A DNA stretch of 17,104 bases from a virus. Under the pieces are notes generated by a model. The model saw only the letters and a program-made list of their open reading frames with translations. It made no database searches and was not told the DNA's origin. The stretch lies in UHGV virus genome UHGV-0120250; one strand, given 5' to 3'. Below, piece after piece: positions 7,454-15,564 of this stretch (the stretch's first letter is position 1; each line of letters starts with the position of its first letter). The position numbers and the translations under genes are program-made.

Positions 7454-7460
7454 TTAAATC

Positions 7461-7526
7461 TATCACCGCAAGGGATAAACTTCTAACACCGTGCGTGTTG
7501 ACTATTTTACCTCTAGCGGTGATAAT
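7461..7526. promoter_or_regulatory. OR3-OR2-OR1 operators with divergent pRM and pR promoters
   Basis: OR3 tatcaccgcaagggata 7461..7477; OR2 taacaccgtgcgtgttg 7484..7500; OR1 tacctctagcggtgata 7508..7524; pR -35 TTGACT 7498..7503 and -10 GATAAT 7521..7526; AAGGAGG SD before cro. Confidence 0.9.
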
Positions 7527-7550
7527 GATTGCCTGTACTAAGGAGGTTGT

Positions 7551-7751
7551 ATGGAACAACGCATAACCCTGAAAGATTATGCAATACGCTTTGGGCAAAC
7601 CAAGACGGCTAAAGATCTCGGCGTATATCAAAGCGCGATTAACAAGGCCATTCATGCAGGCCGAAAGATTTTTTTAACTATAAACGCTGATGGAAGCGTT
7701 TATGCGGAAGAAATAAAGCCCTTCCCAAGTAACAAAAAAACAACTGCATAA
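7551..7751 (+). CDS. cro: Cro repressor, 66 aa
   Basis: [54 protein letters not shown]... matches lambda Cro as recalled. Confidence 0.95.
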
Positions 7752-7758
7752 GTAACAC

Positions 7759-7804
7759 CGCTCTTTTCACAATGGACATTCGTCCTACGTCGCTGACAAA
7801 GCGA
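7759..7804 (+). promoter_or_regulatory. nutR-like site: boxA-like CGCTCTTTT plus boxB hairpin TCGCTGACAAAGCGA
   Basis: boxA-like 7759..7767; boxB 7790..7804 with the same GACAA loop as the nutL hairpin; located between cro and cII. Confidence 0.45.
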
Positions 7805-7888
7805 GCCCCAAGATATCTGACCAACTAAGGCCATATGCGTTTCCACGCATACCTTTCAACTAACTATTCACTATTGGAAAATTAACAA

Positions 7889-8185
7889 ATGACACAAGCA
7901 AGTTACAGCAAGCCAACACAGCGAGAAATTGATCGCGCTGAAACTGATTTACTCATCAACCTGTCAACGCTTACCCAGCGCGGTCTGGCAAAGATGATTG
8001 GCTGTCATGAATCGAAGATAAGCAGAACGGACTGGAGATTTATTGCTTCGGTCTTGTGTGCTTTCGGAATGGCATCAGACATCAGTCCGATTAGCAGGGC
8101 TTTTAAGTATGCGCTTGATGAAATCACAAAGAAAAAATCCCCGGTGGCCGCCGGGGACTCTAAGCAAATTGATATGCAATTCTGA
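7889..8185 (+). CDS. cII: cII-like transcriptional activator, 98 aa
   Basis: Position after cro/nutR; size 98 aa; C-terminus ...[18 protein letters not shown] parallels lambda cII ...KKRPAATERSEQIQMEF (from memory); helix-turn-helix-like centre. Confidence 0.8.
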
Positions 8186-8217
8186 GGGAATTACTGGATC
8201 AATCCACAGGAGTAATT

Positions 8218-8364
8218 ATGACAAAACAACTCAGTCCTTACCAGGACAAAATTCACAAACACATACTACGTGATCGCTTCCTGTCCAGCTTCAAGCAGCC
8301 TGGTCGATTCCGGGCTGAGTTGGAAAAAGTGAAGCTGATGCAGAAGGAGAAAGGTCATGAGTAA
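8218..8364 (+). CDS. small hypothetical protein, 48 aa ([48 protein letters not shown])
   Basis: Hand-translated; below the ORF-track size cutoff; AGGAG SD 5 nt upstream; stop overlaps the O start (ATGAGTAA). Confidence 0.4.
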
Positions 8365-9217
8365 TCTTGCAACCGTAACACATTTAAGGCCTTCACAACG
8401 GCCTGTGGAGCGTCGTGTGGCAGAAGTTGAAGATGGTTATACCCGTCTTGCAAATGCCCTGTATGAAGAGCTTATCGGCGCTGATTTAACGAAAAATCAG
8501 AGCAAGGTTGCCCACGCCATATGCCGTAAAACATACGGCTACGGTAAAAAGATGGATCGCATCTCTGATAGTCAGTTAGCTCAAATTACCAGGCTGCCAA
8601 GACAGAAGGTAAACAAGGCCAAGAATGAGCTTATCGCGATGAAGGTTATCCTTCGCGAAGGCCAGCAAATCGGGCCTAACAAGAACATCGAGGAATGGCA
8701 AATCGAAGGGTGTCACTACTCTGGTGATAATGTCACTGCATTGGTGACAAAAAGTGTCACCAAAACGGTGACAGCGCTGTCACCAAAACAGGGACACACA
8801 AAAGAAACTATTACAAAAGAAAAAAGAAATAATAAAAACACTATGTCCGAAAGTGTTCGGACGGAGTGTGAAAAATCACATGACCGTCACGAAGAAACCG
8901 ACAAGGCATTCGAGGAAATATTCTGGTGTGCAGGCATGCGGAAAGCCGGGAAGAAAAACGCAGCTTCGGCATTCAGAACACAGTTCAGGGAATGGCGTAA
9001 AACTACCAGGGGTACGGCAAGCGAGTTTGCCACGATGCTGGCAGAAGACATCGCATGCAGGAATGGTAAGCAGTTCGGATTCGACAGGTTGTTACCATCG
9101 AGCTACCTGAACGGTCAACGCTGGAACGACGAGAAGCCAGAAACTATTCAACCACAATCCAAACCATCATCCGCAATCACCGTATCGAAAACTGGCTACG
9201 TGTTTTTCGACAGGTGA
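8357..9217 (+). CDS. O: replication initiator O-like protein, 286 aa
   Basis: N-terminal domain [56 protein letters not shown] resembles lambda O (DGYARLSNMLLEAYSGADLTKRQFKVLLAILRKTYGWNKPMDRITDSQLSEITKLP, from memory); iterons lie inside the gene. Confidence 0.85.
8711..8845. repeat. candidate replication origin inside O: GGTGACA/TGTCACC iteron cluster followed by an A-rich tract
   Basis: At least six TGTCAC / GGTGACA units in alternating orientation across 8711..8790, then an A-rich run (aaagaaactattacaaaagaaaaaagaaataataaaaacac) at 8797..8845; same layout as ori-lambda within O. Confidence 0.55.
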
Positions 9218-9324
9218 ACCATGAAATAAAAAATCAAATCGCTACTGGTCGCTGGTTATAACCACGGCTGGTTAAGTATTTCGTTTGTCGATTTCTGGTT
9301 TAAAAATCTCAATCTGAGGGAATC

Positions 9325-11205
9325 ATGAGGCCAAGTGAACTTAGCGACCTGCTTTGGGCGCAGGTTGACAGGGTGGCTCCGCACCTGTTGCCAAACGGCA
9401 AGAAAGAGGGGCATGAGTGGGTTGCCGGTAACGTCAACGGTGACAAGGGAAACAGCCTTAAGGTCAACCTTAGCGGCAAGAAAAAATGGGCTGATTTCGC
9501 TGAGGGAGACGGCGGTGACATGCTTGATTTGTGGATGGCATGTCGTGGAATTAACCTGCATCAGGCTATGCAGGAAGCGAAAGCCTTTCTCGGAATCAAG
9601 GATGACGATCACCATTTCGATGCCAAACGTGAGAAGAAATTCTCCAGACCTGACCGCAAGAAAATCGCCCGCTACGTTACCAGAACAGAATCCCATCTTG
9701 AGTACCTGCAATCGCGTGGCATATCGCCAGAAGTCGTAAAGCGCTACGAGGTTGTCAGCGGCAAGGTGTGGAATGGAGAACGAGAACTTGATGCACTGGT
9801 GCTTCCGTACAAACGCGATGGTGAGTTGTTGCAGGTCAAGCGAATCAGCACTGAGCGCCCGGACGGGAAGAAAGTCATTATGGCAGAAGGTGATTGTGAA
9901 CCTTGTCTGTTCGGATGGCAGGCTCTGGACGCTGGCGTGAGGGCGGTTGTACTTTGCGAAGGCGAAATTGATTGTATGAGCTATGCGCAATACGGCATCT
10001 CGGCGTTATCCGTGCCGTTTGGTGGCGGGAAAGGCGCTAAGCAACAGTGGATTGAGTTTGAGTATCACAACCTCGACAGGTTTGAGGAAATATTCATCTC
10101 GATGGACGTTGATGATGTTGGTCGTGAAGCCGCAAGGGAAATCGCAAGCCGACTCGGTGAACATCGTTGCCGTCTTGTTACTCTGCCGTACAAAGACATC
10201 AACGAATGCCTGATGAACGGTGTTACCGAGGATGAAATCTGGCAGTACATCGGCACGGCATCCTACTTCGATCCTGAAGAACTCTACAGCGCGCGAGAGT
10301 TTTACCAGGACACTATCAACGCTTTCTACGGCAAGCAGCAGTATCTGTTTAATCCACCGTGGGAATCTCTGGCAGATAAATTCCAGTTCCGTGAGGCCGA
10401 GTTGACGCTGGTCAATGGTGTGAACGGTCACGGAAAAACGGAGGTTGTCGGGCATATGGCACTTGAGGCAATGCGTCAGGGTGTGAAGACGTGCATCGCG
10501 TCACTTGAGCTGAAGCCTGGTATTCTCCTTAAGCGCCTTACCCGTCAGGCGACGTGCTGCAAGATGCCGCCAGTGCTGGAAATTGACTCTGCATTTAAAT
10601 TTTATGACGAAAGACTTTGGGTGTTTGGCCTGACCGGAACGGCGAAAGCCGACAGGCTGATCGAAATATTCGACTACGCTCGCCGCCGATACGGGATCCA
10701 GTTATTCATCATCGACAGCCTGATGAAATGTGGCATAGGCGACGATGACTATAACGGGCAGAAGGCGTTTGTTGACTCGATTTGCGACTTCAAAAACAAA
10801 ACAAACTCCCACGTCATTCTCGTTACTCACTCGCGAAAAGGAGACAGCGAAGAAAAACCAACCGGGAAAATGGACGTAAAAGGCTCTGGAGCGATAACAG
10901 ACCTGACAGACAACCTTTTCATCATCTGGCGTAACAAGGCTCGCGAGAGAGCGTTACAGAGAGTTCAGAGTGGTGAAAAGATGTCAGAGAAGGACGAACA
11001 GCTACTGGCATCTCCGGCATCTGTTTTGATGCTTGAAAAACAACGTAACGGCGAAGGTTGGGAAGGTGGTGTCCCGTTGTTCCTTGACGAGCAATCGCAC
11101 CAGTTCCTGCAACTTGAATCAGGATCGCCTTATAGCTACATCGCCAATATGCCGAAATCGGAATATGACGAGGCGTGGCGACAGGAAAACGTGACGGAGT
11201 ATTAA
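9325..11205 (+). CDS. bifunctional DNA primase (Toprim) / RecA-fold replicative helicase, 626 aa
   Basis: GAGGG SD before ATG 9325; Toprim-like acidic cluster (VVLCEGEIDCMSYAQ ... ISMDVDDVG); Walker A-like LVNGVNGHGKTEV and Walker B-like LFIIDSLMK in the C-terminal half. Occupies the lambda P position. Confidence 0.9.
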   Translation: MRPSELSDLLWAQVDRVAPHLLPNGKKEGHEWVAGNVNGDKGNSLKVNLSGKKKWADFAEGDGGDMLDLWMACRGINLHQAMQEAKAFLGIKDDDHHFDAKREKKFSRPDRKKIARYVTRTESHLEYLQSRGISPEVVKRYEVVSGKVWNGERELDALVLPYKRDGELLQVKRISTERPDGKKVIMAEGDCEPCLFGWQALDAGVRAVVLCEGEIDCMSYAQYGISALSVPFGGGKGAKQQWIEFEYHNLDRFEEIFISMDVDDVGREAAREIASRLGEHRCRLVTLPYKDINECLMNGVTEDEIWQYIGTASYFDPEELYSAREFYQDTINAFYGKQQYLFNPPWESLADKFQFREAELTLVNGVNGHGKTEVVGHMALEAMRQGVKTCIASLELKPGILLKRLTRQATCCKMPPVLEIDSAFKFYDERLWVFGLTGTAKADRLIEIFDYARRRYGIQLFIIDSLMKCGIGDDDYNGQKAFVDSICDFKNKTNSHVILVTHSRKGDSEEKPTGKMDVKGSGAITDLTDNLFIIWRNKARERALQRVQSGEKMSEKDEQLLASPASVLMLEKQRNGEGWEGGVPLFLDEQSHQFLQLESGSPYSYIANMPKSEYDEAWRQENVTEY

Positions 11206-11234
11206 ATGACCATCTACATCACTGAGCTAATAAC

Positions 11235-11267
11235 AGGCCTGCTGGTAATCGCAGGCCTTTTTATTTG
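11235..11267 (+). terminator. intrinsic terminator between the replication genes and the nin region (tR2-like position)
   Basis: AGGCCTGC-tggtaatc-GCAGGCCT followed by TTTTTATTT. Confidence 0.6.
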
Positions 11268-11282
11268 GGGGAGAGGGAAGTC

Positions 11283-11699
11283 ATGAAAAAACTAACCTTT
11301 GAAATTCGATCTCCAGCACATCAGCAAAACGCTATTCACGCGGTACAGCAAATTCTTCCAGACCCAACCAAACCAATCGTAGTAACCATTCAGGAACGCA
11401 ACCGCAGCATTCGGCAAAATGCACGCCTTCACGCGATGCTATCTGAAATAAGTAAGAAGGCTACATATCATGGAAAAGCAAGAAATATTGAGTTTTGGAA
11501 GGGGTTATTCGTTTCTGGTTGGCAGATTGCAACCAACCAGCACCCTGAGATTATATCAGGGTTAGAAGGTGAGCTAATAAACATCAGAGAGAGTACGGCG
11601 ACTCTATCTGTAAAAAAAATATCCGAAATAATGGACTACATAGAAGCATATTGTGCCATGAACTCAATTCATCTTAGCGAATGGAGGGATTATGATTGA
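11283..11699 (+). CDS. ninB: NinB (Orf-family recombination mediator), 138 aa, C-terminally altered
   Basis: First 42 residues MKKLTFEIRSPAHQQNAIHAVQQILPDPTKPIVVTIQERNRS match lambda NinB as recalled; the rest is divergent but alignable; the track ORF starts 6 codons earlier. Confidence 0.85.
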   Translation: MKKLTFEIRSPAHQQNAIHAVQQILPDPTKPIVVTIQERNRSIRQNARLHAMLSEISKKATYHGKARNIEFWKGLFVSGWQIATNQHPEIISGLEGELINIRESTATLSVKKISEIMDYIEAYCAMNSIHLSEWRDYD

Positions 11700-12294
11700 G
11701 GTTTGGGTAGATATCGAAGGGATTCCATTTTATCAGGTTAGCAATAAAGGAAATTTCAGGTCTATTACGAGGGAAGTTACAGTAACATCAACCAGACAGA
11801 GGCCATATAAGAAAATAATTAATGGCACTAGCATAAAACCATTCAAGTGCAAGTCGACAGGATATCTTCAAATAAAGGTATACGGTAAGAAATACAGCGC
11901 CCACAGGATAGTTGCGAAAGCATTCTGTACAGGGTTCTGTGATGGCTTGGTAGTTAATCACAAAAATGGGCAAAGAGATGACAATAGGGCTGAAAACCTT
12001 GAATGGGTATCACATTCTGAAAACTCAAAGCACGGATATAAACAAAATGGAAGAATACCTATATCGCTAGGTAAATTTAGTGGTGATCATCCTGCCAGTA
12101 AAGCTGTTATTTCTACTGACATGAAAACTGGTGAGGAGGTTTATTATGAAGCAGCTATGGATGCTGTCAGAGAAGGATTTGATAGTTCGTCAATTAGTCG
12201 TTGCTGTAATGGCGAAAGCTCATATCACAAAGGAAGATTCTGGCGATTTGCAAATGAAACAATGAAAGCAAGATGGGGAGATCGGGCTGCATGA
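11692..12294 (+). CDS. HNH homing-type endonuclease with NUMOD4 motif, 200 aa
   Basis: N-terminal EVWVDIEGIPFYQVSNKGNFRSI (NUMOD4-like) and HNH core NHKNGQRDDNRAENLEWVSHSEN; start overlaps the ninB stop; the last 9 residues KARWGDRAA equal the lambda NinB C-terminus. Confidence 0.85.
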   Translation: MIEVWVDIEGIPFYQVSNKGNFRSITREVTVTSTRQRPYKKIINGTSIKPFKCKSTGYLQIKVYGKKYSAHRIVAKAFCTGFCDGLVVNHKNGQRDDNRAENLEWVSHSENSKHGYKQNGRIPISLGKFSGDHPASKAVISTDMKTGEEVYYEAAMDAVREGFDSSSISRCCNGESSYHKGRFWRFANETMKARWGDRAA

Positions 12295-15408: not shown

Positions 15409-15483
15409 GGGTCAGTCGTATAAAGGTCATTACGGAAGGCTGTTAACCTTCTTATCGTGGTTCGAGTCCACGCTGTCCCGCCA
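15409..15483 (+). tRNA. tRNA-Asn-like (anticodon GUU), CCA encoded; imperfect acceptor and D stems
   Basis: Cloverleaf folded by hand: acceptor gggtcag/ctgtccc (one T-T mismatch), anticodon stem gaagg/ccttc, loop CUGUUAA, T-arm cgtgg-TTCGAGT-ccacg, discriminator G, CCA. Confidence 0.5.
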
Positions 15484-15488
15484 AACAT

Positions 15489-15564
15489 GCTGTTTTAGCT
15501 CCAATGGTAGAGCGGTCGCCTTGTAAGCGAATGGGTAGCGGTTCAAGTCCGTTAAACAGCACCA
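15489..15564 (+). tRNA. tRNA-Thr (anticodon UGU), CCA encoded
   Basis: Cloverleaf by hand: perfect 7-bp acceptor gctgttt/aaacagc, D-arm gctc-caatggta-gagc, anticodon loop CUUGUAA, T-arm agcgg-TTCAAGT-ccgtt, discriminator A, CCA. Confidence 0.6.

Follow-up and report, generated by a model that had tools for sequence, protein, structure and literature searches.

UHGV virus genome UHGV-0120250, a 17,104-nucleotide stretch of DNA (the window, below, at its full length), contains the early region of a mosaic lambdoid (pro)phage, and we analyzed its replication module, in which a lambda-like O-type initiator gene with an internal origin is followed by a gene for a 626-amino-acid (aa) primase-helicase of the T7 gp4/Twinkle family. 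The module is probably lambda-like up to the origin and T7-like after it: O would open the origin, and its C-terminal domain would recruit the gp4-like primase-helicase. An earlier reading of the letters alone (the original prediction) had described the same pair of open reading frames (ORFs), and both are present as described (Table 1). It should be noted that the O-origin-primase-helicase module is already known and common, and is not a new arrangement.

The origin lies inside the O gene. The repeat cluster consists of four 19-bp inverted repeats, TGTCAC-N7-GTGACA, at 8711-8796, and is followed by an A+T-rich tract and a palindrome (Table 1); thus, the span of 8711..8845 that was originally proposed for internal iterons and an A-rich tract is essentially correct. 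With up to two mismatches allowed, the motif occurs five times in the window, with four of the matches clustered in the O gene, compared to an expected number of 0.5, and none of 200 shuffles gave five matches. Repeats that arose by chance, or that reflect coding only, were considered as an explanation and ruled out by this result, taken together with the ori-lambda geometry and the flanking tract. For comparison, the published description of ori-lambda has four iterons of 18 bp next to a 38-bp stretch of high A+T content within gene O (PMC3349717). The start-to-start spacing of the iterons in the window, 20, 24 and 23 bp, agrees to the base pair with the spacing of those annotated in lambda (39034, 39054, 39078 and 39101), and the iteron arms are found at unchanged offsets in the Pantoea and Klebsiella relatives, with variable spacers. 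The A+T-rich tract is near-identical to the lambda tract, almost base for base; it is the presumed DNA-unwinding element and, in the hybrids described below, the joint of mosaic recombination. The position of the inverted repeat next to it corresponds to that of the palindrome to the right of the lambda tract. Because the iterons, their spacing, the tract and the inverted repeat all correspond, the anatomy is that of ori-lambda with different iteron arms.

The N-terminal part of O is of the lambda type as well, in agreement with the DNA-binding domain that was predicted for it. The protein matches Pfam Phage_rep_O (1.1e-37; 128.8 bits against a cut-off of 28.7) and TIGR01610 (phage_O_Nterm; 1.6e-30; 105.4 bits against a cut-off of 45.5), and its residues 1-157 are 49% identical to lambda O (BLASTP). 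Residues 1-118 are 100% identical to the O protein of PhiR12_1, whose iterons are the same. A search of solved structures with O gave nothing useful (best E-value 0.69).

The domain search with the 626-aa protein found Toprim_2 (3.1e-12), AAA_25 (2e-6) and DnaB_C (3e-5) in Pfam and phrog_239, "DNA primase/helicase" (3e-171), in PHROGs, so that the proposed fusion of a Toprim primase to a RecA-fold helicase was confirmed. The best solved relatives are T7 gp4 (2.7e-23; phmmer, aa 192-539) and Twinkle (6.5e-14); the identity is only ~21-24%, and the match to gp4 runs from the Toprim domain through the helicase in one chain. An AlphaFold2 model of the protein is confident in residues 1-330, and a Foldseek search with the model placed Twinkle (3e-18) and T7 gp4 (5e-18) on top and also retrieved the Aquifex primase (ZBD+RPD). 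Conservation of individual residues was studied in an alignment of 26 family members, down to 61% identity, with T7 gp4 added. The primase residues R131, K172, K182, E212, D261, D263 and D291 are invariant and correspond to T7 R84, K122 and K128, which are basic residues of the RNA-polymerase subdomain, and to the Toprim acidic residues E157, D207, D209 and D237; the helicase residues K371 (Walker A lysine), E395 (catalytic glutamate), D464 (Walker B) and H502 (His sensor) are likewise invariant and correspond to T7 K318, E343, D424 and H465. The apparent equivalent of the T7 arginine finger, R574 in KQRNGEG, was read by eye and not by the aligner. The functional roles of the gp4 residues were reportedly established by mutational work of the Richardson laboratory. 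A short, gp4B-like helicase-only form that would start from M66 was also considered, and it was dropped, since M66 is not conserved in the family.

The original prediction held that no P-type helicase loader accompanies this protein, and indeed none of the P or DnaC type was detected in the window: lambda P and a phage DnaC-like loader, compared to the window by tblastn, gave no match better than E = 0.95. The primase-helicase gene is the only gene between O and ninB.

Downstream of the iterons, the O protein is of a different type. Beyond aa 157, O has no significant BLASTP match to lambda O, and the lambda O C-terminus was not found by tblastn in the whole window. The C-terminal domain belongs to phrog_33384 (6e-88), and the C-terminal 121 aa match no Pfam family at E up to 5. 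Alignment of diverged homologues shows conserved helices, then a variable linker and, at the very end, 13 strongly conserved residues. A word-index homologue search with the C-terminal domain alone returned mostly fragments of near-identical proteins and contributed little to a profile.

How the parts of the module are exchanged can be seen in natural hybrids. PhiR12_1 and the window share 98.6% identity over a stretch that begins upstream of O and ends at position 8829, within the A+T tract; after this joint PhiR12_1 is lambda-like (96.7% DNA identity), with a lambda-type O C-terminus, a P protein 97% identical to lambda P, and ren. In ES18 and in the IMG/VR contig L072, the similarity to the window starts at 8784. 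Upstream of that joint, ES18 has an N-terminal domain 93.5% identical to lambda O and lambda-type ATCCCTC...GAGGGA iterons, and L072 likewise combines a lambda-like N-domain with ATCCCTC iterons. In Min27, the similarity starts at 8833 and is preceded by an HTH_36 N-domain and a third repeat type, TGGGGCAGGAGCTGCCCC. Thus, the type of the N-domain tracks the type of the iterons across these natural hybrids, as altered specificity predicts; the original suggestion that iterons unlike those of lambda reflect a changed initiator specificity is consistent with this co-variation.

The C-terminal part of O, in turn, follows the helicase system. The lambda-type C-terminus is paired with P in lambda and PhiR12_1, and the window-type C-terminus is paired with the primase-helicase in the window, ES18, Min27, L072, the Pantoea and Klebsiella prophages, Fraca and CharmingMan. 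Among IMG/VR sequences, the O C-terminal domain and the primase-helicase are both present in 79 of 80 loci, and the remaining locus ends at a contig edge. The two proteins diverge in parallel: where the O C-termini are 97-99% identical to that of the window, the primase-helicases are 94-99% identical, and at 55-62% for the former the latter are at 60-87%. The Pantoea and Klebsiella prophages have values of 60.5% and 60.7% for the O C-terminus and 76% and 87% for the primase-helicase, respectively; Fraca and CharmingMan have 55-62% and 60-61%, and carry yet another N-terminal region. In work on lambda/phi80 and lambda/P22 hybrids, the N-terminal half of O was reportedly found to determine which origin is used, and the C-terminal half to determine the specificity for P. 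Because natural hybrids co-inherit both parts, and by analogy with lambda genetics, the C-terminal domain of O most likely recruits the primase-helicase.

The following order of events can be proposed. O would be made from the early rightward operon (cro-cII-DUF2740-O...), its Phage_rep_O domain would bind the four iterons in its own gene, and the nucleoprotein complex would open the 41-bp A+T tract; we infer the binding and the opening from the homology of sequence and geometry to ori-lambda. The C-terminal domain of O, which is unrelated to the P-binding domain of lambda O, would recruit a hexameric gp4-like primase-helicase rather than P-DnaB, a step to which the co-inheritance in natural hybrids points. 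Like T7 gp4, the primase-helicase would be self-loading; it would enter at the opened strand and unwind in the 5'->3' direction; its Toprim active site would probably lay RNA primers, and host DNA polymerase III would extend them. DnaB and DnaC would not be needed, nor would the DnaK/DnaJ/GrpE step that in lambda frees DnaB from P, and the same possibly applies to DnaG. Independence of both host DnaB and host DnaG had been proposed originally. The 626-aa protein is very probably the replicative helicase of this origin, and independence of DnaB is likely; that DnaG is dispensable, too, is a proposition that we favor by a small degree. For DnaG the case is the weaker of the two, since the Cys4 motif with which the T7 primase recognizes its template is absent from the family, and the need for DnaG would be removed only if a zinc-less primase works.

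Several observations weigh against the proposed mechanism. There is no Cys4 zinc finger in the primase-helicase family, our literature search yielded no experiment that addresses which host factors this module needs, and the AlphaFold2 model of the C-terminal 127 aa of O, built from a 20-row alignment, has a mean pLDDT of 59.7, which is too poor for analysis. Relatives of the O C-terminal domain at 37-44% identity adjoin other partners: a DnaC-like loader in Pseudomonas phage Skulduggery, and a small ORF followed by NinB in Vibrio phage D65. These two cases rule out an exclusive pairing with the primase-helicase for distant members, and since the partners of distant relatives differ, the family appears to be a general module for recruiting the helicase system, not an exclusive adaptor. 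Finally, a 35-codon ORF between O and the primase-helicase is knocked out here, and if it is needed, this copy may not work.

With respect to priming, it may be asked whether the 626-aa protein is a helicase only, such that it bypasses DnaB, DnaC and P, its zinc-less domain does not prime, and DnaG is still needed; its N-terminal part would then serve, as in human Twinkle, to bind DNA, or else to dock to O. In the model, aa 1-95 have pLDDT values of 80-92 and fold into strands and then helices, and they match TIGR01391 (dnaG; 9e-10) under its cut-off. Throughout the family alignment, however, no Cys or His is conserved at the positions of T7 C17, C20, C36 and C39, and no cysteine is conserved anywhere in aa 1-95; residues 1-204 match no Pfam family, including primase families, at E up to 5. 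The Cys4 motif of T7 reads the template sequence (PMC3610141). Animal Twinkle, without these cysteines, is without primase activity, the cysteine loss being one associated change (PMC3610141), and the N-terminal domain of the human protein has a role in binding DNA instead (PMC9860392). Human and Drosophila Twinkle are, however, also without conserved residues of motifs IV and V (PMC3610141), whereas here the RNA-polymerase/Toprim catalytic residues are all invariant in a family that has diverged to 61% identity, and the strong conservation of the zinc-less N-domain suggests a retained function. As only the cysteines are missing here, primase activity is plausible, not assured, and a protein that is solely a helicase seems unlikely. 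Far less probable still is an accessory role, in which O recruits host DnaB in some other way, as has to be the case in lambdoid phages with O alone, and the primase-helicase has a later or different task, for example in rolling-circle replication, restart or counter-defence. An O homologue without a helicase or loader does occur in 34 of 314 lambdoid phages (PMC12315714), and the distant relatives paired with a DnaC-like loader would fit such a role as well; however, in all hybrids examined the O C-terminus is immediately followed by the primase-helicase, and the two are co-inherited and diverge in parallel, and the gene occupies the exact place of P in lambda or of the DnaB-like helicase in P22 and HK97.

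The 35-codon ORF, which occupies the 107 bp that separate O from the primase-helicase gene and was overlooked by the original prediction, raises another question. It forms a PHROG family of its own (phrog_21848, 4e-26), is annotated as gp60 in ES18, is present in CharmingMan and is omitted by RefSeq annotation, as it mostly is by genome pipelines. In 88 of 89 related loci it is uninterrupted, with a length of exactly 35 codons, and this length is kept down to ~40% peptide identity in every divergent lineage examined. In the window alone, its codon 3 (9228-9230) is TAA, compared to TCA; the TAA allele is absent from the 88 other loci, and 43-nt probes for it matched none of 5426 E. coli genomes, with the TCA control matching 217. 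The change may represent either a knock-out confined to this window or an error in sequencing; in every other respect this copy of the module is ordinary. If the ORF encodes a needed adaptor or loader, or is a translational-coupling leader (its stop overlaps the primase-helicase start), the nonsense codon would leave a replication-defective or leaky (pro)phage. The constant length, the overlap, the separate family and the rarity of the allele favor such an impaired copy; however, a direct reading of the sequence shows a separate GAGG Shine-Dalgarno sequence for the primase-helicase, 5-8 nt before its ATG, both O and the primase-helicase are uninterrupted and share 99% identity with the proteins of viable phages, and a single base difference could be an error of sequencing. 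We therefore regard an impaired copy as improbable. We are equally doubtful about a three-part module, in which the 35-residue micro-protein is an adaptor or loader that couples the C-terminal tail of O to the zinc-less N-domain of the primase-helicase, and the TAA is a natural knock-out; that N-domain may in such a case have given up the zinc ribbon's task of reading the template and become a surface for docking.

Table 1. Positions of the replication module, its parts and the neighbouring genes. Positions refer to the window, except for the intein carriers, which are related loci.
Feature	Position	Strand	Remarks
O-type replication initiator gene, 286 aa	8357-9217	+	ORF; Phage_rep_O, TIGR01610
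Origin-binding domain coding region, aa 20-114	8414-8698	+	Pfam match extent
Iteron 1, TGTCACTACTCTGGTGATA	8711-8729	.	Offset in gene kept in Pantoea and Klebsiella relatives
Iteron 2, TGTCACTGCATTGGTGACA	8731-8749	.	
Iteron 3, TGTCACCAAAACGGTGACA	8755-8773	.	
Iteron 4, TGTCACCAAAACAGGGACA	8778-8796	.	
A+T-rich tract, 41 bp	8797-8837	.	83% A+T; 71% A, top strand
Inverted repeat, 14-bp arms, 4-bp spacer	8838-8869	.	Right of A+T tract
O C-terminal domain, non-lambda type, aa 172-286	8870-9217	+	Proposed primase-helicase docking module
Remnant 35-codon ORF (ES18 gp60, phrog_21848), MKSKIKSLLVAGYNHGWLSISFVDFWFKNLNLRES	9222-9328	+	Stop overlaps primase-helicase start
Bifunctional primase-helicase gene, 626 aa, T7 gp4/Twinkle family	9325-11205	+	
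N-terminal domain, aa 1-95, zinc-ribbon-like fold, without Cys4 ligands	9325-9609	+	
Toprim domain, aa 209-296; E212, D261, D263, D291	9949-10212	+	Toprim_2
SF4 helicase domain, aa 355-594; E395, Walker B D464, H502, R574	10387-11106	+	AAA_25, DnaB_C
Walker A GHGKT	10426-10440	+	In SF4 helicase domain
Terminator-like hairpin and T-run directly 3' of primase-helicase gene	11235-11258	+	Consensus match only
cI	6737-7450	-	Peptidase_S24 and HTH_3
cro	7551-7751		
cII	7889-8185		
DUF2740 ORF	8218-8364	+	Overlaps O gene start
ninB	11265-11699		
HNH endonuclease gene	11692-12294	+	NUMOD4, HNH_3 and I-HmuI NUMOD-like
Intein carriers	L004 (Min27) 1995-4577; L007 and L030 ~5589-6577		Protein P0012

Comparison with known systems shows that the module as a whole has close counterparts. 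In ES18, gp59-gp60-gp61 form the same module with the same gene order, and the GenBank record describes gp59 as "similar to phage lambda gpO", a rep_origin as "similar to lambda ori" and gp61 as "putative primase/helicase; similar to phage T7 gene 4"; its O C-terminus and primase-helicase are 97% and 94% identical to those of the window. The same module is found in mEp043, Sf101, epsilon34, SEN22 and the Stx2a phages Min27, 24B and Stx2a_F403 (the "Eru5" type), and phages with the ES18-type module have O C-domains 96-100% and primase-helicases 94-99% identical to those of the window. The 2849-bp segment with the O and primase-helicase genes is 99% identical to mEp043 and Sf101 throughout; their records name the two genes "DNA replication protein O" and "DNA primase/helicase", and the O proteins themselves are 99% identical to that of the window. 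Also, the combination of a TGTCAC-type N-domain with a primase-helicase-type C-domain already exists in mEp043, Sf101, SEN22 and vB_EcoP-720R6. The differences lie elsewhere: ES18 resembles lambda in both its iterons and its N-domain; an HTH_36 N-domain, together with other repeats, is found in Min27, 24B and F403; the helicase P-loop contains an intein in Min27 and phages closely related to it; and the window alone has an interrupted gp60 homologue.

With lambda O-P and ori-lambda, the window shares the N-domain family (49% identity), an origin within the initiator gene, the four-iteron spacing, the A+T tract and the early-right position; lambda differs in its TCCCTC/GAGGGA iteron arms, compared to TGTCAC/GTGACA here, in an unrelated O C-domain, and in having P and ren where the window has the primase-helicase. 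P22 gp18-gp12 and HK97 gp54-gp55 also consist of an initiator followed by a phage replicative helicase, with no loader, but that helicase is DnaB-like and without a primase domain; the ES18-type protein has been described as a "nonhomologous primase-helicase" (PMC10307801). Overall, lambdoid replication modules fall into O with P, O with a DnaB-like helicase, O with a primase-helicase, and O alone. T7 gp4 and the mitochondrial and plastid Twinkle proteins share with the 626-aa protein a single chain of DnaG-type RNA-polymerase/Toprim, linker and SF4 helicase, in which the catalytic residues align; the protein of the window differs from gp4 in the absence of a Cys4 zinc ribbon and in its position behind an O/iteron origin, whereas T7 replicates without an origin-binding initiator and encodes a DNA polymerase of its own. 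The P4 alpha protein and the RepA proteins of N15 and PY54 are temperate-phage proteins with primase and helicase activities, and replication in these phages is largely independent of host initiation proteins; they differ in belonging to other primase and helicase families and in having origin binding fused in the same polypeptide, with no separate O.

The module was found in 298 of 5426 complete E. coli genomes (~5%) and also in prophages of Salmonella, Shigella, Klebsiella and Pantoea, and the 90%-identity cluster of the primase-helicase has 5632 member sequences. Stx2a_F403, which a megablast search matched over 83% of the segment, represents the "Eru5" replication type of Stx phages, and Eru5 has been found in Stx2a phages of enterohemorrhagic (EHEC) O157:H7 strains from a UK outbreak (PMC8951638). 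If the host-factor independence is true, it could bear on the range of hosts, on how sensitive the phage is to host mutations or to defences directed at the P-DnaB route of lambda, and on the replication rate of toxin-converting prophages. The natural hybrids form a 2x3 swap panel, with one N-domain/iteron set combined with P or the primase-helicase, and one C-domain/primase-helicase combined with three iteron types, and with such a panel the contacts between the parts of O and the different helicase systems could be mapped. The value is modest and mostly practical: a known mosaic principle is seen once more in a known module, and the understanding of lambdoid modules is unchanged.

A number of minor observations concern the two replication genes. 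The C-terminal tail of the primase-helicase (aa 606-626, 11140-11202) is acidic and aromatic, ...EYDEAWRQENVTEY, and its W618 and T624 align with the T7 gp4 tail ...STDWSNDTDF. In T7, this tail contacts the phage DNA polymerase; such a polymerase is presumably absent here, as in other lambdoid phages. In some relatives, the gene for the primase-helicase contains an in-frame insert of ~340 codons straight after the Walker A lysine (GHGK|...HN|TEVV); this insert is an intein in the helicase P-loop, because it has Hint and LAGLIDADG domains, and the protein of the window is without it. In one IMG/VR relative (L040), a 1.25-kb IS3-like transposase insertion (5262-6513) lies in the Toprim DxD motif, after aa 263, and disrupts the gene. 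Six IMG/VR relatives (L017, L022, L036, L041, L073 and L080) have an extra 491 bp (4363-4965) between O and the primase-helicase, in which no convincing ORF was found. In Min27 (1109-1881), the annotated O ends at 1777, and the similarity to the O C-domain of the window runs to 1881, which suggests a frameshift or a mis-annotation of the record; the same record divides the primase-helicase gene into "P" and "ORF31".

Other observations concern the surrounding genes. The DUF2740 ORF occupies the place that PMC3349717 gives to P22 orf48; its label in PHROGs (phrog_1913), and also in a number of RefSeq phage records, is "tail protein", which looks wrong for a gene of the replication operon. A promoter scan of 7400-11500 found 4 candidates, compared to 4.7 expected in shuffles, and no internal promoter is claimed. 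A strong terminator-like hairpin on the minus strand (8134-8161) lies inside the 3' end of cII, and to the right of it, CAATCCACAGGAGTAATTATGACAAAA (8200-8226) matches the conserved oop promoter/5' region quoted in PMC3349717; the hairpin and this sequence probably constitute an oop-type antisense RNA, for which the Rfam scan of the window gave no match. Directly 3' of ninB, there is an HNH homing-endonuclease-like gene, in the place where mEp043 has a DNA adenine methyltransferase gene. At the gathering threshold, the same Rfam scan found nothing in the replication region and only two tRNA genes in the window, at 15409-15480 and 15489-15561 (+ strand; Rfam tRNA, 55 and 61 bits), which lie in the late-regulatory region.

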